Assembly (NCBI GenBank): GCA_964016885.1
Contig: OZ024753.1
Coordinates: 3,968,001 to 4,032,000, forward strand
Direction: 5' to 3'
Source of the DNA: Eledone cirrhosa
Lineage: Eukaryota
Length of the DNA: 64,000 nucleotides
Shown here: in pieces, positions 12,781 through 57,612 of the stretch
Layout: every line of letters begins with the position of its first letter
Numbering within the stretch: position 1 is the stretch's first letter
Notes under the pieces: model-generated
What the model saw: the letters and a program-made list of their open reading frames with translations, nothing else
The model's database searches: none
What the model was told of the DNA's origin: nothing
Translations under genes and position numbers: made by a program

Positions 12781-12944
12781 AGGTATGTGTAGGTGTCTGT
12801 AAGTATATATATGTGTGTGTGTGTGAGCGTGCGTGTCCCGGGTCCAATCGTGGGTAACTACAGTAATTAAGGTACTCAATACATGGCAGAGTATAAATAT
12901 TTAGTGTAGAAATAGCTTCTACAGGTCTAGAATTGTTTCATTTG

Positions 12945-12983
12945 AAGGAAATCATCAGGAAAGGCTTTCCTGATGATTTCCTT
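12945..12983. repeat. Perfect 19-bp inverted repeat with a 1-nt spacer
   Basis: aaggaaatcatcaggaaag-g-ctttcctgatgatttcctt. Confidence 0.9.
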
Positions 12984-13013
12984 TATGGACATACTTACAC
13001 ACACATATATATA

Positions 13014-13045
<32 letters not shown>

Positions 13046-15728
13046 TGTGTAGCGAACTAGAAAGACAAATCAAACAAACAGGTATCAAGCACACACACAC
13101 ATGCTCAGACACATACACACACAAGTATATGTATGACGAGAACAACAAACCAAGTATTTGTGTGGGAAAATCGTTAAAATAATAAACAAACTAGGGATTT
13201 ACTCAGTGACCAAAGCCCTAAAATGTTGTTGGGTTTTACATTCAAAAGCGATGTGAGTCGAATACTTTTAAACGTACCGGCACAATTATTGCACAGAATT
13301 ATTTTTAAAATATACCTCAGAAGATAAACCGGCTATTCCTCTATTTATCGCGTCTAATACAGTGTAGTGTGTTAGATGGTCTTGTGTTTCATATCTATCT
13401 ATCTATCTATCCATATCAAGTGAATTCAGCAAAAGTCTGCTTACACTATTACTCATCAGAATACTCGATACTTAAGGTAGAAGATTACGGTTATAAGAAA
13501 GAGTGGGGACCCCGATAGCTGGACTCTTGCCATTTCAACAGCGGGAATGCACATTTTGCCAATTCTGTCAAAACCACACGCACTACTAGTTATTCGTTAT
13601 TGGGTATATTGTCCAAGCTATTTTGTCACACATTCTTTGACATCCTCAATGACTTTTTTTGTTTTTCTGTGTGTCAATTTTTTTCAGGTCTTATTCTATT
13701 GAGTTTCTACAATGGCAAACTTTACCTGTTGCCAGGTCAAGAGATATTTACGGAAATTACATTTTCTTAGAGTAAACGTGATGCAAGATTCCATGTTAAT
13801 CTAATTACATATGCGCAAGAGATCTTTTGTGAAGGTTGCACACGATGTGTCCTTTCATGTTGTTGAAGGCGAATACACATTTATCTCTATACAATTCGGA
13901 TATGTAGGGGTCTTTACGCTTGTTAATTTTATCTTGAATGGAGAAACGCTCTATACCTGCCTTTCGGTCAATTATAAATTCCCAACCGAGAGGTGAATGG
14001 CAGTTATTGAGAAACAGGTGCAACAATAGTGGTTTTCATAATGATGCTGATATCAATGTTCTGATTATGGTGCGTTCTTTCTCGAAATGCATGCTTCAGT
14101 AAACGATGATTTCTATGGAGATTATAGGTAGCATGAACATTTCGTTAAATATATATATATGGCATCCTTTATCTTCTATATTAATAAGCCACAGAACAAT
14201 TGCAACTCAACTGAAAGTAATGTCGAATATTGAATTTAAAGAAGTAAAATGTTATTACGTCATCTACTCACAGTTTCAAATATTTATATTATAATTACCT
14301 TCTTGTAGTTCCAAAATATCAACAAAGTTTTCTGAATATCACCGCCGGATCTATATCACCCATTGAAAGTCAGAAAATAATAATGGGTTTATCCTCTCGA
14401 TGTTTGCCAGCATTCACGACAAATATGTCCGAACGAGCATATCAAGTAAATCTCTCGCTGTTATAGGTAGTCAATCATCGCATTCATAGCTATATACACA
14501 CACACACATATTCATACATATACACATATATATGCATGCATGCATATGTACATTGTGCGAGAAAGAAAGATAAATATGAAGTGCAATCCACCATTGATTC
14601 CATGAAAATGTTGAATAGCTAAAGGAGCCAACCACAGAAACCTGAAGGTACAAGCGGAGTCAATCCTCACCTAATGATCCCATTCAATTTCCAAACAAGA
14701 ACGACCGACGTGCTGGATGCAATCCAACCATCATCCTATTGGCCTACATTTTGTTCTCTAGTCGGGTAGCTTTGCCCGACAAATCTACGTGGCGCTTTTG
14801 TCCTAAGATATTCCAACCGCATGTTCGTAGCACTTGCGGCTTAATCTTGCAATGCGGAGTTGTAGCGACTTTATCATGAACGAACCATTTATGTATTTCA
14901 GTATACATAAGAAATATAGGCTTAATATGGCCGATATTACGAGGAACGAAGTTGTAACTATACTAACGGAGAGCATGAAAAGCATGACAATGAAGAACAC
15001 TGGCAGAAATAGGTATATCAACATATGTACTCATGTACTTGTATTTGTATGCAGTTACACTTGTGAAGTAGTTATGAAAATGTATCATAGTTTCTTCCGA
15101 GTTTTTGCATATTTCAAATGCCTTTGATCTGATGTTTAAATGGCCATGCTTGTGTATGGAATTGGATACACATGAATTAGTTGAAGAATAGTTAGCGATG
15201 AATTAAAAAAAAATAGTAAATAAGGAAAGCATTTGAACGATGAAGCAGCATAAGAGTTAATATACAGAAATCAATAGTAAAGTATTGGTAATAATTTACT
15301 TTACAATATGTGGAACAATATATGTAAGCAGACATGCGTATGTGTGAGTGTGTGTTTATATGTATATATACACATGTCACACACACATATATATATAAAT
15401 ATATATCAAATAAAATTTTATATTTGAAATAATCGTTATTGTATTTCATACGTATAAGAAATGAAAGATAATAGAAGCTACAAATATCTATATTTCTGGT
15501 TACCTAATAAAGCGATAACAGAAATCAAATTTATTATATACTTCCAGACATGCGGATATTTATATCATATGAAAAGGAAATCTATGACCTCATTGCAATT
15601 AAGATTTTTATTTCCAAAACGTAGAAGAAAATTGATTATTTATATTCTCTTTGACGCAATATCTTTCGTCTTAGACTAGTAATGAAACAATTATCAGTAT
15701 TACCGCTATTATTATTATTATTGCTAAC

Positions 15729-17565
15729 GGCGGTGGATTGGCAATATCGGTGGAGCATGTGCCAACAGGCTTTCGCGGCATAGAGTTACGGGCCTTTACG
15801 TTCTGTGTTCAAATCCCGCCGAGGTTAACTTTGTCTTTCATCCTCACGGGGGTCGATAAAATAAAGTAACAGTAATGCACTGGGTATTTGCTAAGGGTAG
15901 TGGATTGGCAGTATCGGTAGAGCATCGGACAACATAATACGTGGCATAGAGTTACGGGCCTTTACGTTCTGTGTTCAAATCCCGCCGAGGTTAGCTTTGA
16001 CTTTCATCCTTACGGGATCGATAAAATAAAGCACCAGTAATACACTGGGTCGACTTTCCCCTCCCCTTCAAATTGCTGGCCTTGTGCCTAAAGTAGGAAA
16101 TTTGTATTGCTATTGGTGTTGATTTTAACATTAAAATTAATATTATCATTATTGGCACTCATGCCAATGTTATTGGGCGGTCGACTAGCAGAATCTTTAT
16201 AGTGTTGGACGAAATAAAATAGATAGCGGGATTTGAACGTAAAGAAATACTGCAAATTTTCACTTAAATACCAATAGCATAGGCCGCGAATTGGCAGAGT
16301 CGTAAGTGCGTCGCATAGAATGCTTTATGGCATTCGATCAGGCTCTCTGTTCCCTTTGTTCAATTCCCGCCGAGGTCAACCCTGTCTTTCATTGTTTCGA
16401 GGTTGATAAATAAGTATCAGTCTACTACTTGGGATCGATTCCTTCTCTTTCTCTATATCTCTTTTCTAATTTCCTCTCTATTACTTTCTATCTCTCTCTG
16501 GAAGAAATCTACTGTAGTCAGACCTGCAGAGCGATGGGCTTCGCCAGGTTTAAAATACCCAAGAACTCCGTAAGTTAATACGGCATCCCTGTTACTCTAT
16601 CAGGTGTTACGGGACGATACCATACCAGTGGAATACTGTGCTAGCTTTAATCGACTACACCTACACTAAAATGTGTTGATTTTGTGCTGATATTAGAGAT
16701 AAAGGCGTGGGGTTAGCCGAATCATTAGACTGCCAGACTAAATGTTTTGCAATATTGATCTGCAGTTTTACATTCTCAATTTTAGTCATGCCTAGATTAA
16801 CTTTGGCCTTACTCTTTCCGAGTTTGATAAAATAAAATACTACTCAAGTACTAGAACAATTTAATCGGTATTTACAAGAATTGAATCGATAATTACATTC
16901 TGAGTTTAAACCCTGTCGAGGTTAGCTTCGCCTATCATCCTAAAGGGGTCGATAAAATAAAGTACCAGTAATGCACTGGTTTCGATTATATCGACTTGCC
17001 CCTCTCCCAAAATTGTCCGCCTTTTTCCTAAATCAGAAGCCCACTATTATCATCAATGGGAGCGGTGGATTGGCATATTGTTAGAGCGTCGGACGCAATT
17101 TTCGTGGCATAGAGTTACGTCCATTTACATTCTGTGTTAAAACCCCACTGTGGTTAGCTTGGCTTTTTATTCTCAAGTGTCTATGAAATAAAATACCTGT
17201 AAAGCACTGGGGTCGACTTAATCTATTTTCCTCTCTCCCTAAAACTCATAGCCCTGGGCCTAAATCAAAAACCAGTATTATCAGTATTACTGCGAGCAGT
17301 GGATTAACAATAACTAGAGCGTCGGATGCCATGCCTCACTGTTTGAATTACGTCCCTTTATATTCTGAGTTCAAATCCCGTCTAGATTATACATTCGCCT
17401 TTCATCATTACGGCGTCGAGGAGATAAAGTACTCGTAAAGCAATGGGGGGAATTTAATCGACTTTCACGGCCACAAAAATACTGCTGGACTTGTCCCTAA
17501 ATTAGAAATCATTAGTAATACACTGGGTAATTGCTGGCCTTGTGCCAAAAGTAGAAACAATTGTT
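15729..17565 (+). mobile_element. Head-to-tail cluster of ~8-9 tRNA-derived SINE copies, all on the + strand
   Basis: Repeated ggcggtggattggcagtatcgg (A-box-like)...gttcaaatcccgccgaggttaactttg (B-box)...gtcgataaaataaagtaccagt...ggccttgtgcctaaagtagaaac. Copies start near 15729, 15895, 16175, 16282, 16703, 16894, 17060 and 17295, plus a tail at 17517. Confidence 0.92.
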
Positions 17566-19600: not shown

Positions 19601-20699
19601 TTGAGTTGAATTAGCTGCAACTATTGGCGCCTCCCTTCCCATACACTACCACTCAGAATTCAATTGCCACTTCGATACGTGTCGAATTATTTTTTTTATT
19701 GTAAATTTCCAAACGAAAAGTTATTTTCTGAAGTAAATTAATTCAAACGTTTGCTAGCGAAAGAAACATTTTACTCACTCCCAGTGACCAGGATCAGTAT
19801 GCTATCATCATAGTATATTTACAACACTCAAAGCGAAAACAAGTGTAATTTTAGATATATTATAAAGCAATAAAAGCGAATGTGATTCAGAAAGATGCTA
19901 AAAGATGTGGGTGTATATGTAAATATGTATGTTTATGTGATGACTACATGTTCTTTTACAGACAGAAATAGTCAAACACATGCAAAGCAACAATCTGCGA
20001 TATCAATATTAATTTTACACATATTTTACTTGATTTTTTATATGCAAAGATGGTGTTCAAGTTGCGATTAGATATCAAAGTGCTTTAGCGTACGTATATA
20101 TATTTATGTAAAAGTTATTAGATTAAAGCCCCTGATTAAAATCAGAAGTAGAACTCATATGTCGTATGTTTCAATATAATTAGTTCATAATACAGTATCT
20201 AGTTGCTTTTGCCTTCAGTAGATAGTACTTTGTGGTGATATATCAGAGAATATAAGGAAAAAGAAAACAATAAAATCGATGCGTGCCTCAAGAAAATAAT
20301 GTATGAATTACAAGACGCATACAAGAATATGTAGAAAATTGAAAACTTGCAGAGCATGCACATGCAATAATTAGTAAGGAAAAGAGACTGACCTTAATGA
20401 CGTCTAGTTAAATTCCACGTATTCTTTCATGTATTCATCATCACAAAATGTAATCCACTGCTGTAAAATATAGATGTTTGAGAGATTTATTTTGTATATT
20501 AGACATACATGTGTTTAGAATATACTTTGCATTCATTCGATATATACTCGAAACACTACCAACACCAAAGTTGTATGGATACACAACTTCAACAATTATT
20601 ATTTTTATTAGAGAAAAGCAATGAAGAATGACATGATGCTGAATGAAAACAAAAGCAATATATACAAACACACACACACCGACCACAACTAAATATGGA

Positions 20700-21350
20700 A
20701 TGATACGCATTGGAAAAGCCATTCCAGCTTGCGGGGCACACACCTGCGGCTGGCCAGCTCAGCGCCTATGGTGGTGAGTAGGGAGGTAGCCTTAGGGCCA
20801 AGATAACCAAAAGTCTCCACTGCCATGGGTACAACCGCAAACCTGTCGGTGAGAGACCGGTATTTGAGGAGTTTAGCCTCCTCAGCCCGACGTGCAGCAG
20901 AACCCGGGTTTATCGCAGACTGCACCAGCTTGCGGCTGCAGAAAGTGTCGGTGCAGGTGGCATCCCAGAGGAGGGGTTTTCCACCGCGGAACGTGAAGAT
21001 GGTCATGCAATCTGGCCTTTTGTCGTCCCCTCTGTCCATCCCCACCGGCTGGAGCTGGGAAGGGAAGCTTGCAGCATCCAAGTCATGCTTTATGACGTCG
21101 TTGAGGGCAGCATGGCGTGGAAGGCGGCTGGCACTGGGGCGACAGGAAAGCGGGTGGAGGCCGAAAGGGTCCATGGTAGATCCGCAGCGACATTGGTGGG
21201 GCTCGCAGATCCGGAGGCCGAGCCTCAAGGAAACACCAATGCGCAGGCTATTATTGTCTAGTTGCGTGCCAGTGGCGAAGTAGGGCAGGGCATGGAGCCA
21301 GGCACCAATTTGGGTTTGGAGGCCGCAAGAAAACAGGCAAGGGGTGCTCG
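20700..21350 (-). mobile_element. CRE-clade (RLE-type) non-LTR retrotransposon C-terminal fragment: zinc knuckle plus PD-(D/E)xK endonuclease
   Basis: ORF 20689-21390 contains GAWLHALP, LRLG, CRCG..DPFGLHPLSC (CCHC), RHAALND, KRPD...LLWDATC...AEEAKLLKY and PMAVETFG..GP. GC-rich relative to the flanks. Confidence 0.9.
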
Positions 21351-22258
21351 TCGAGCTGGCGTGTGAGCCTGTCTGAGGCACCTTCAACACATATTTCTAT
21401 GATTTTATGTAAAAGCATATATATATATATATATACATATATACAATTGACTAAAATAAAAACATTTGATGTCTTTCACGGCTAATTCGTAAAGCAATTT
21501 GAACTATCCATGCAGTTAGTAATAATTTATACTGCACATCAATAAGTTATATATGACAATATGCTTTACTTGAATGGTAACTCCTGACTTAGCTTGGAGA
21601 AACATTGTATACGTGCGGCAATTATAACACTATTTATGGAGAGGGTGTTCATCATAAACTTCATTTAAAAAGGTATCATTACAATAGACTTTTAAATTAA
21701 GAATTGAATCCCCTACATATATTCATTACCTGTTATATAGTTCAGTAATGCTCCCATACTCTGTTAAAATACTCATATGTTCAGAAAAATAAGATGGGGA
21801 TACACAGTCCTTTGGTTAATAAGATTGACTCAATCTGTTTCAGAAATCATGTAATAATGTGAAATGCGAATTTCAAATTGTCTTTATGTTCAACTTAAAT
21901 TATTAGATGCAATTTGGTTTAGCAATGTGTGTTATGACTACACACAGAAATTAAATGGAATTGAATACATAAGAGGTTGATATCAAAGAAACTTAAAATG
22001 ATTTTGGAACGTTAAACGCAGACCAAAATTAACATAAATTGTCAAAATCATGCTTCATAAATCTAATACACTGGAGATATGAAATTAGTACCCATGCTAG
22101 ATTTAAATAAAAACACGAAGACATAAATTCTATCGGAATAAATGTATAGCGTCGAAATTATACAGTGTATTATGAATGAACACCTACAATTACCCGTCAC
22201 TATTATAGGTGGAATATTCATTTCATGAAAAGAAAAGTAATTTATCGACCGGGTGTAC

Positions 22259-35273: not shown

Positions 35274-35727
35274 GACGATGCTTCACTCTCGCTACTGCTA
35301 GACTTTGAAACAGTCAATAATACTTTCCTGGCATTTAATGCATCCAAGAAACGTTTCAATGAATAAGAATTATAATAAATCTTTAGCAAAATGAAAAAAA
35401 TTGACACAGATTTATATCGGTACCAGCGATTCAATATTGATAGAGACATTAAACAGTTCTTAGATTAATCCATATATGTATTTTTTAGCAGTTATCATTT
35501 GTCCGAAGAGCTTCATTTCATTTTCCTTTATATAATAGTAGATGTGTAACGAGGTAAAAATAGAGACATCACACGTATGAGTCGATCGAATGTTAAGTAT
35601 GTTTCAAGAGGATATTTACTAGAGATAAATGTGACTGTGCTTCTGTGTGTGTGTCTATATATCAATACACAGTGACACTTATCTTATAATCTACAGTTGT
35701 TGTCCTCCTGTTTCTTCTACAACAGCT

Positions 35728-36042
35728 ACAACGGCGGTCAGAATGGAGAAGGCGTTTCCCCGGAGGACGGCGATGGAGACGCGCTGGAAGAGCCACTCCA
35801 ACTCGCGGGCTTCACACCTGCGGCTGGCCACCTCAGCGCCTATGGTGGTGAGTAAGGAGGTAGCCCTGGGGCCGAGGACACCAGAAGTCACCACTGCCAT
35901 GGGTACGACTGCAAACCTGTCGGAGAGCGACCGTGCAGCAGAACCTGGGTCAGTCGCAGACTGCACCAGGTTGCGGCTGCAGAAAGTGTAGGTGCAAGTG
36001 GCATCCCAGACGAGGAGTTTGCCACCGCGGAACGGGAAGATT
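35728..36042 (-). mobile_element. CRE-clade element fragment (RLE domain, internal deletion)
   Basis: TIFPFRGGKLLVWDATC.YTFCSRNLVQSATDPGSAAR/SLSDRFAVVPMAV.TSGVLGPRAT...EWLFQRVSIAVLRGNA. Clearly homologous to 20700-21350. Confidence 0.9.
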
Positions 36043-37007
36043 GTTACAAGAATAACCAAGCTTAAATAGTTCAATTGGTGTTGGCCATAAAATGCATAAT
36101 AAAACAATTATAAATATATATGTACGGCATGAAATAATCTACTAAATCGGACCCTCTTCTTCATACATGGATTATCATTCATGTACAAATGTCTGAATAA
36201 TAATGAAAAGAAACCGTAAATAAAAAAAAAAAATAAAGTACTTTAGCTTTGTTTCATCGCTGCAGATATCCTCGCTTAAGATCTGCAAAGAAAACCAAGG
36301 ATCTTAGATACTGCTCTTTTCTCATAAATACAGTACTTAAATTTTTCAAATGTCTGCTGTTATATGAAGCAGGGAAGTAACCTGCATGCACAAAAGTTCA
36401 TTGATATGCGCTCAATATTTATGTTACTGTTTAGTTTTTATCTGAAGATCAATATTGGTGATAAATATAAAACTTTCAAGCCATAAATGGATCCATAAAT
36501 GTTTTTGTTTGGCTGTTTTTTCAATATCCATTAAAGAGAAATACAAAAGAAAGCCAATTTTGCAGCCCATTTATGCATTAAGCCTGAAAAAATGGCCGAC
36601 ATTGAAATGATATAAAAAAATACACTATGACATTTTGAAAAGGAGATTTTAAAGTAATTTTTTTTTTTGTTAAAAGTAAAACTATTGAATGTGAAATCCC
36701 GAATTTTCAATTTGACTTTCTTTGCTGTTATGCTCTTATTGCCGTTTTGAAACACACACATACACACACACGCACACACACACACATAATTACATGTATC
36801 TGTGTGTATGTTCGTGCGTGTGTGTTTGTTTGTATCGGCGTGTGTGTATTTATGTATTTGTATACAGACACGCACACACGTTCACAATCACACACGCACA
36901 CCCACAAACAGAGTGAGAGAGACAGACACGCGTCATATTTGTCATGAGCATATATGATATTTCAATCATGATTTGGTTTACTTAATAAATTTATTGTTGG
37001 GATTGTA

Positions 37008-42739: not shown

Positions 42740-44261
<1,522 letters not shown>

Positions 44262-56104: not shown

Positions 56105-56183
<79 letters not shown>

Positions 56184-56186
<3 letters not shown>

Positions 56187-56653
56187 ATTCAGCCACCATG
56201 TAGAGCGAAAATGTTCTCTTTTATTTGAATTTGGCAAAGTCGCCCATTTATCGCTCGTATACAGGAAACTGACTGGCCAGACTGATGATATGCAAATTTG
56301 GCTGATCAGTAGATCTGCTAAGATGCAGATCTGACTGATCAGCCAGTCTGCTAATATGAAAATCAGGCTATCAGTGACTGTGTATGTTTGAAAATAGCAT
56401 ATATTTTCACTAGCTCTGACAGTTTGGCAGGGGAACAGTGAACTGTACTGATGAAGGGTGATACGCAGAAATATTAGTGTCTGCAGTTCTGTTCACATGC
56501 CAACGCAAGAGCAAGAATGAAGGGTTCATTCTACTAACATGGCTATAAAAGTGAGGCTTGTTTGCATAATTGCAAACGAATCGAATGTTATTATTAATAT
56601 TCGAAAAACTCAGATTACATTTATTGTATTCAGCCATCTAGAGCGAACATTTT

Positions 56654-56656
<3 letters not shown>
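56184..56656 (+). mobile_element. Non-coding, terminally redundant hammerhead-containing element (retrozyme or non-autonomous Penelope-like) in (TA)n
   Basis: Direct repeat tgtattcagcca(cca)t(g/c)tagagcgaa.at.ttct at 56184-56220 and 56625-56656. Internal ~32-bp tandem repeats at 56269-56380. Hammerhead at 56433-56494. TA tracts on both sides. Confidence 0.7.
56433..56494 (+). ncRNA. Type I hammerhead ribozyme (near-complete)
   Basis: gaaca-gt-gaactgta | CTGATGA (56448-56454) | agggt-gat-acgca | GAAA (56468-56471) | tattagt-GTC (predicted cut after C56481) | tgcagttc-tgttc. Stem I is 8+5 bp with a 2-nt bulge, stem III is short and quasi-palindromic, stem II is imperfect. Confidence 0.75.
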
Positions 56657-56694
<38 letters not shown>

Positions 56695-56813
56695 TAAAGA
56701 AACAGTTTAAAGTTTAAGCAAAGAATCGGTGCTTTCACCCTTAACGGGATCTTCTGAAACTAATATATCTATCTATCTATCTATCTATCTATATATATAT
56801 ATATATATATAGA

Positions 56814-57104
56814 GTTATACTTGGGGAGGGTCATATTTGTGTAATATTGCCAGAATTAATAACAGAACACACTCACTGTTTGGTTGGTTTTCGCTTTTCG
56901 CTTCTGTGTCTTTTATATCGGTAATCTAATTTACTCGGTCCTCAATGTTGCCATTGACTGACAATGGCAACATTGAGGACCGAGTAAATTAGATTACCGA
57001 TATAAAAGACACAGAAGCGAAAAGCGAAAACCAACCAAACAGTGAGTGTGTTCTGTTATTAATTCTGGCAATATTACACAAATATGACCCTCCCTAAGTA
57101 TAAC
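56814..57104. repeat. 143-bp-arm near-perfect inverted repeat with a 5-nt loop
   Basis: Arms 56814-56956 and 56962-57104, loop ACTGA. One mismatch seen near the outer end. Starts at the edge of a TA tract. Confidence 0.95.
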
Positions 57105-57612
57105 AATATTTGTTTCGACACACGATTTCATATAAAAAAACCTCGCAAAACTATATATATATATATATATGCTTATTCGCGGAGGAAACACTACAAATTA
57201 AGTAATTCTGTTGGCAGGTATTATCAAGCATATATTAGTATTACAATTTGTATATTTAATGTTACCCACGTAAGAATCTATTCATGTATGTTTATCCTTG
57301 AAGGCAGTGTGGGTATTTCTTTTTTTACACACCGCCACGCCACTTGGTTAATAACATGATTTGAAATGGTTGTCCTTTAATTCATTTTTGAGAGTTAAGT
57401 CTTTCTGGAAGTTTGCTATATTCTGCATCGAATTAGTTTTCAACTTTCGACAAACAACAATATTTTTTAGTACAATTATTAATTCAAGTAGATCTATTAA
57501 AGATATAATTTGCTATGCGTTAAAATATACGAATTCATTTATTTGCAGTGTAAAGACGTCATACATATCTCAATATCGATCCATCTTTCTAAATTTGATA
57601 GATATTGAGAAA

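Follow-up and report, generated by a model that had tools for sequence, protein, structure and literature searches.

A non-coding, hammerhead-bearing repeat family of Eledone cirrhosa with Penelope-type ends, probably mobilised in trans

A 64,000-nucleotide stretch of Eledone cirrhosa DNA (hereafter the window) contains a short unit with a hammerhead ribozyme motif lying between TA tracts, which raises the question of what kind of element this is, by which machinery it was inserted, and whether its ends reflect the form of the RNA from which it was copied. The original prediction described it as a terminally redundant monomer whose short overlap would be the mark of reverse transcription around a circular or tandem RNA. 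The reading reached here, to which a probability of about 0.85 can be given, is that the window copy is a decayed member of a 438-bp repeat family that has no coding capacity, carries a hammerhead and possesses Penelope-type ends, and that this family likely represents a non-autonomous Penelope-like element (PLE) of the non-LTR retrozyme kind, which would be copied into (TA)n by the reverse transcriptase (RT) and GIY-YIG endonuclease of a PLE acting in trans.

On the forward strand, the full unit of the window copy runs from 56184 to 56623 and corresponds to q1-q438 of the natural copy L002, whose numbering is used as reference (q1 = 56184, q296 = C56481, q438 = 56623). It diverges by 5.1% from the commonest letter per column, the median for family arms being 5%. 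All the sequence features previously claimed for this locus are found where they had been placed, including the ~33-bp imperfect direct repeat at its ends: the unit's first ~38 nt (56184-56224, forward strand) recur in a 3' tail of the PLE type (56624-56656, same strand), which repeats the first ~33 nt. From start to start, the two repeats (56184-56224 and 56625-56656) lie about 438-441 bp apart, and the left one carries a private 3-bp insertion that is missing from all 29 other copies compared. TA tracts are likewise present on both sides, the left target tract (56108-56183) being composed of (TA)n up to 56172 and then of (TG)n, with which microhomology merges the 5' end of the copy, and the right (TA)n target tract covering 56656-56694. 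A further (TA)-rich tract of 1.5 kb, with about 760 repeats, is located at 42741-44261 of the window.

The unit belongs to a large family. In the 3.0-Gb assembly, exact matches number 1,104 for the 34-nt hammerhead core, 3,189 for the 3'-end 31-mer and 3,112 for the 20-mer located just past the predicted cut, with none for any of the reversed controls. Since a sample of loci contains 36 exact matches to this 20-mer for at least 70 arms covering it, the family can be roughly estimated at ~6,000 arms or more. In addition, a DNA search with the unit returned 3,704 candidates, and the 40 that were scored show, leaving aside the self-hit, 90-93% identity. The genome-wide check suggested at the outset thus reveals thousands of dispersed copies. 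The unit also folds far better than its shuffled versions (z = -8.7 against 100 shuffles), and natural cut-to-cut monomers folded as circles reach predicted energies of -134 to -168 kcal/mol, compared to -101 +/- 3.5 kcal/mol for 30 shuffles of one such monomer. The fold, with its z of -8.7, and the multicopy nature of the family together rule out a chance origin. Besides, a SINE-like element with a B-box, of variable 5' length and with a target duplication, is inserted at q404/405 (56590) in 35 of 182 family loci, sometimes in both arms, in which case it was co-mobilised, and sometimes in one unit only. The corresponding site is empty in the window copy (56590-56607, forward strand), and the same SINE-like element is found elsewhere in the window as two tandem copies (15721-16050).

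The type I hammerhead of the window copy occupies 56431-56496 of the forward strand, with a predicted cut after C56481. Its core motifs lie in the type I topology originally claimed, namely CUGAUGA at 56448-56454, GAAA at 56468-56471 and GUC at 56479-56481. Stem I (56431-56447/56482-56496), with a GU bulge at 56438-56439, is the bulged 13-bp helix already described, and reaches 15 bp in most copies. Stem II (56456-56459/56463-56466) is broken at 56465 and has an A.A pair at its base (56455/56467), while stem III (56471-56480) is self-complementary, the short quasi-palindrome reported for it extending to ten self-complementary bases in typical copies. These typical copies combine a 15-bp stem I with a 2-nt bulge, CUGAUGA, the A.A pair, a 4-bp stem II, GAAA and stem III. 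The stem II mismatch of the window copy had been correctly recognised, position 56465 being G where 24 of 29 other copies have C, whereas a second change had been missed: 56472 is T in the window copy and C in 26 of 29 others, which weakens stem III by shifting the predicted self-dimer from -8.8 to -5.0 kcal/mol. With both C56465G and C56472T, the hammerhead of the window copy is predicted to be likely inactive, in agreement with the suspicion first raised.

At the level of the family, the core shows 2.4% substitution in 146 arms, a value that is biased low because many loci were chosen by an exact core match. Pairing was assessed in 100 of 133 distinct copies, the 33 with gaps in the region being left out, and 95% of the stem cells are paired. 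At q257, q309 and q310, where stem variants are commonest, pairing is maintained by one-sided wobble, and a variant at q255, present in about 8% of arms, breaks a stem pair. As for covariation in these 100 copies of a young family, it does not rise above that of shuffles, 87 of 500 reaching its score. The Rfam hammerhead check that had been proposed gave no match up to an E value of 10, either with the window or with the intact copy L006, and the miRNA matches returned by Rfam were set aside as generic hairpins below threshold. The bare CTGATGA..GAAA..TC pattern occurs at three distinct sites in the window and is weak evidence on its own, since about one match is expected there by chance. The base of stem II, with its A.A pair, departs from the canonical form. 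Unrelated repeats with the same hammerhead topology and a U.U pair at that place (L072 and L216) are also detected by a family-derived model, and a minimal hammerhead form lies downstream of PLE open reading frames (ORFs) in L086 and L092. L072, L216 and L086 display the same topology in different sequences. In the predicted fold of the monomer, which lies 6 kcal/mol below the active fold, the core is paired with stem III, and this fits an activation of the ribozyme by dimers.

Where the copies end was studied in 86 loci, obtained from the first 100 exact matches to the 3' motif on one contig. These comprise 52 head-to-head inverted pairs with their 3' ends outward, 32 single-arm loci and two complex ones, and the tail-in (tail-to-tail) arrangement was found in none of the 86. 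The 3' ends are fixed at two places, either at the end of the unit (q439, i.e., 56624) or 30-38 nt beyond. Of the 40 scorable pairs, 38 have a single tailed end (P = 1.5e-9 against an expectation of 0.5), one has a tail at both ends and one at neither (L144), the scoring being based on BLAST classification checked by eye, with 12 of the 52 pairs unscorable. In line with the (TA)n targets originally claimed, (TA)4 or longer lies near 105 of 126 counted 3' ends, compared to a background of 9%, target-site duplications being unreadable inside (TA)n. Loose ends at 56624 followed by (AT)n are seen in DNA contigs as well, although these come from two runs of one sample that may be the source of the assembly and are hence not independent, their depth moreover not being a copy number. 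By contrast with the fixed 3' ends, the 5' ends are variable and spread over the unit, and no arm of the 86 loci starts at q1. Longer forms also exist: direct unit pairs stand 437-444 nt apart, two or three hammerheads follow each other in arms such as those of L220, L223, L224 and L232, and the longest arms seen measure about 2.5 units, with no long tandem array among the 40 best of 3,685 dimer candidates, 20 of which were inspected.

PLEs are described as having 5' truncations, partial tandems, an inverted 5' copy and microsatellite targets (PMC8557442, PMC3846280), together with a tail of 30-40 bp that is often found at one end (PMC8557442, PMC3846280). Truncation, partial tandems, inverted arms, one-sided tails and microsatellite targets are all found in the family, whose ends match this description, and the terminal redundancy is therefore the PLE tail. 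The notion of a terminally redundant monomer thus holds for the window copy and fails as the layout of the family. In the same way, the short overlap provides no evidence for a circle, because it corresponds to the PLE tail and because no sampled arm starts at q1. For this latter reason, the start of the window copy at q1 probably reflects a fortuitous truncation of its 5' end into (TG)n.

One could alternatively consider that the unit resembles a SINE or is a satellite, that it owes its spread to a LINE or to recombination, and that its hammerhead-like motif is incidental. The lack of any Rfam match and of significant covariation goes in this direction, as do the fixed 3' ends beside simple repeats, which SINEs may also show. 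However, simple patterns of Pol III A and B boxes are absent from both strands of the unit, the copies are dispersed rather than arrayed, inverted arms bearing a tail on one side characterise PLEs, and the full core with its three stems is kept in most copies, which makes such an origin very improbable. No tRNA is present in the 64-kb window.

Other small repeats of the window lie close to the unit. A second TA-flanked element at 56809-57155 has inverted arms of 148 nt that are 98% complementary, the right arm showing an extension of ~45 nt before (TA)n, i.e., a one-sided-tail layout, and related sequence is found in 26 of 235 loci. At 56690-56760 lies the 3' part of a third small repeat, which terminates in (TA)/(TATC)n and occurs in 33 of 235 loci, a repeat of this type being fused to the 5' end of the unit in L122. 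Further away, two related open frames of 235 and 138 aa (20689-21396 and 35691-36107, reverse strand) resemble, by eye, the C-terminal part of a non-LTR retrotransposon protein.

The family also shows sequence properties by which non-LTR retrozymes are recognised: a length of 438 bp, a GC content of 38%, no ATG-started ORF longer than 50 aa in a 2.5-unit arm taken from the genome, consistent with the non-coding character first proposed, at least two consecutive hammerhead units and a self-paired structure. Judged on its sequence, it is thus a family that combines the testable features of non-LTR retrozymes with the ends of PLEs, without an ORF. The metazoan non-LTR retrozymes presented by Cervera and de la Pena (2020, PMC7229834) measure 350-390 bp in mussel, 330-350 bp in axolotl and 220-240 bp in coral, and resemble the unit in having a type I hammerhead within a non-coding, low-GC, self-paired sequence of 150-450 bp, in their short stem III and in their co-occurrence with PLEs. 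Even the mismatch at the base of stem II has a counterpart there, in the axolotl Amex2 motif (PMC7229834). Two differences can be pointed out with respect to the same source: the family consists mostly of dispersed partial tandems and inverted pairs, of no more than ~2.5 units in the loci seen, instead of long arrays, and a blocked hammerhead is predicted for its monomer, which is not the case for most retrozymes described there (PMC7229834).

A long hairpin made of three ~33-bp sub-repeats (56271-56380, forward strand) precedes the hammerhead. The octamer ATGCAAAT is found at 56290, with a variant at 56323 and a third one, mutated in the window copy, at 56356, and at least one exact octamer is present in 106 of the 109 copies spanning the hairpin. 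snRNA-type promoters use an octamer, and the hairpin is perhaps an internal promoter. A 23-nt octamer-bearing stretch is 91% alike in the unrelated hammerhead repeat L216, at a similar distance from the core (88 nt in the unit and 93 nt in L216). A promoter of the snRNA type lies within newt satellite 2, another hammerhead repeat (cited in PMC2220036), in comparison with which the octamers of the unit mark a candidate promoter only.

Several other hammerhead repeats were encountered in the genome. L216 itself (L216:300-3230, G000:C3:308736000-308740000) is an array of at least six units of ~480-510 bp with TA tracts between them, each containing an intact type I hammerhead and an octamer, and represents a different retrozyme-like family. 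A type I hammerhead with a bulged stem is also carried by another family of inverted arms, present at L072:2416-2871 and L211:1135-1288, the piece in L211 abutting the 5' end of the unit. In the window, an inverted-arm repeat at 12860-12990 has a degenerate hammerhead-like core on the reverse strand, with related copies in 20 of 235 loci and clearer cores in L088 and L101.

As the unit has no ORF, its mobilisation would depend on proteins encoded elsewhere. The genome contains 10,596 GIY-YIG candidates, 150 of which were scored, and open ORFs combining RT with a C-terminal GIY-YIG domain reach 1,096 aa. These intact PLE ORFs, along with the end architecture, support the PLE-type mobilisation suggested in the original prediction. 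L083, L084, L085, L086 and L088 represent several young PLE families with open RT and GIY-YIG frames, one family showing 96-97% amino-acid identity within it, and their 3' regions carry hammerhead-like motifs; they are candidate active helpers. PLE ORFs located 1-2 kb from a unit (L091, L095, L033, L069 and L214) were treated as chance neighbours.

The existence of autonomous PLEs also leads one to ask whether the unit could be only the terminal repeat (pLTR) of one of them, the copies being its 5'-truncated insertions. Every end feature of the family is a PLE feature, and PLE terminal repeats are known to carry hammerheads (PMC4209133). Nevertheless, arms that pass q1 always enter the 3' end of the unit itself, up to about 2.5 units, no PLE ORF in the same orientation was found upstream of an arm in 180 loci, and no foreign upstream sequence recurs among 51 non-repeat free 5' ends. 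Such an origin is therefore unlikely, and a non-autonomous element served in trans is preferred. What speaks against the latter is that no terminal repeat with homology to the unit was detected at the 32 PLE loci retained from the 150 scored candidates, and that BLAST, a covariance model and flank comparison did not reveal a parent PLE.

A link between the unit and PLEs comes from three arms that are fused head to head, by their 5' end, to a 5'-truncated PLE coding fragment (L213/L010, L040 and L054), each time from a different PLE lineage. In L213/L010, the PLE arm reaches its own 3' end and a TA tract, and no PLE sequence is seen on the tail side of the three fusions within the flank examined. 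These fusions, small in number, agree with the co-insertion of two RNAs by one PLE complex, although they could also have arisen by deletion after insertion into an old PLE.

Whether the ribozyme acts on the RNAs that are copied can be approached through the 5' ends, as arms copied from cleaved RNA would stop at the cut. Junctions were counted genome-wide with patterns requiring four foreign bases before a 20-nt anchor. They were found for 107 of 3,112 anchors at q295-298 and for 19 of 2,747 at q287-290 (Fisher P = 3e-14), i.e., at composition-corrected rates of about 10.9% and 2.9%, so that junctions at the predicted cut are about 4-5 times commoner than just upstream. Raw counts, which have no genome-wide denominators, amount to 19 at q291-294, 13 at q256-259 and 87 at q303-306. 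In the locus sample, 49 of 136 arm ends fall in q297-356 and 18 in q237-296, with nine in q294-299 where about 3.5 are expected. Inspection of 30 cut-site matches identified seven internal indels, the others being true arm ends, both tailed and untailed. The rate falls exactly where a cleaved RNA would begin, which suggests that cleaved RNAs served as templates, and ribozyme cleavage of the template is the somewhat favoured cause of this step.

The excess nevertheless spans the whole 3' strand of stem I (q295-313), and the cut falls on a CTGCAG palindrome. The step could then result from stalling of the RT in stem I and joining at this palindrome, with a hammerhead that may be weak or dead, an explanation that is less probable but deserves serious consideration. 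It accounts for the frequent junctions at q303-306 and for a second cluster of arm ends at q307-313 in the locus sample, about 15-20 of 100 listed q295-298 matches are symmetric palindrome joins, the monomer is predicted to misfold, and palindromes are reported at PLE inversion junctions (PMC3846280). On the other hand, the rate is highest at the stem exit and decreases ~4-fold within 4 nt, and the T at q297 is kept, by eye, in 96 of the 100 listed matches, compared to 76 of 87 for the matching position of a downstream control. Moreover, the longer hairpin at q85-195, with its four 6-bp palindromes, has no arm end in q139-174, and no more than 13 matches come from an upstream interval that contains a 4-bp palindrome.

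Cleavage, if it occurs, would concern only part of the templates, given that about 71 of 136 arms run past the cut, 57 ending upstream of q294 and 14 reaching a second unit. These read-through arms would need a circle, an uncut multimer or template jumps, which the data do not separate. Together with the arms of ~2.5 units, they would constitute better evidence than the overlap for circular or uncleaved multimeric templates.

A possible cycle can be drawn from these observations. Transcription of copies with two or three units would come first, perhaps starting from the hairpin with its octamers. Some of the transcripts would be cut after C56481 by the hammerhead, which is predicted to be inactive in the monomer and activated through stem III dimers, and this would yield RNAs with 56482 as their first nucleotide as well as RNAs of unit length, for which circularisation is possible. 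The endonuclease of a PLE would then nick (TA)n, and both target ends would prime cDNA synthesis on sense RNA, one at the end of the unit and the other at the end of the tail. Finally, the two cDNAs would join head to head, and the arms would stop at the cut when the template is cleaved or run past it when it is circular or uncut. In its full form, this proposal holds that the insertions record the Penelope cycle, with in vivo cleavage of the template by the hammerhead imposing a strict 5' limit, and with two sense RNA templates per insertion, one of them tailed and the two possibly different, including the retrozyme and any of several autonomous PLEs. It is put forward tentatively, its chances being somewhat below even.

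How the family compares with known systems depends on the group considered. With the endonuclease-bearing PLEs (Penelope/Poseidon, Neptune and Naiad), it shares 5' truncation, partial tandems, an inverted 5' arm, a tail of 30-40 bp at one end, microsatellite targets and a type I hammerhead with a palindromic stem III (PMC8557442, PMC3846280, PMC4209133), whereas it lacks an ORF and has a long bulged stem I instead of the minimal hammerhead form. PMC3846280 favours self-priming on an antisense template; by contrast, the family arms that end at the cut point to sense templates for tailed and untailed arms alike. The non-autonomous elements of Chlamys, such as MRC1, are likewise non-coding PLE dependants with pLTR-like partial tandems, but their 3' end is similar to that of their autonomous partner, and their clade is described there as devoid of canonical hammerheads (PMC8557442).

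That retrozymes are non-autonomous PLE derivatives has already been proposed by Li, Clavereau and Pollet (2026, bioRxiv 10.64898/2026.07.22.740005), who also find dispersed monomers with some dimers and reach the same conclusion on origin, only one of nine predicted retrozymes cleaving in vitro, which speaks for caution about the hammerhead of the family. As far as the accessible text of that work goes, its argument is based on co-occurrence and pLTR homology, mainly in vertebrates, and insertion ends are not analysed. The evidence obtained here differs in that it consists of the end architecture, the PLE-arm fusions and the 5'-end step, with no homologous pLTR found. The main text of PMC7229834 mentions neither cephalopods nor octopus, and the words 'ribozyme' and 'hammerhead' do not appear in the main text of a 2026 Octopus repeat annotation (PMC13282606). 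A literature search returned no cephalopod retrozyme and no analysis of 5' ends relative to the cut site, although subscription papers or supplements may hold one.

As this type of element is known and widespread, the family as such is a modest addition. Its interest lies in being short, young and high in copy number, and thereby in offering a clean test system with countable footprints, namely tails restricted to one side, a step in the 5' ends at the cut, and arms that read through it or are chimeric. If the proposed cycle is true, these insertions would provide genome-scale evidence for an in vivo function of PLE-type hammerheads, as well as evidence against the antisense self-priming model, and the same counts can be applied to any genome containing such families.
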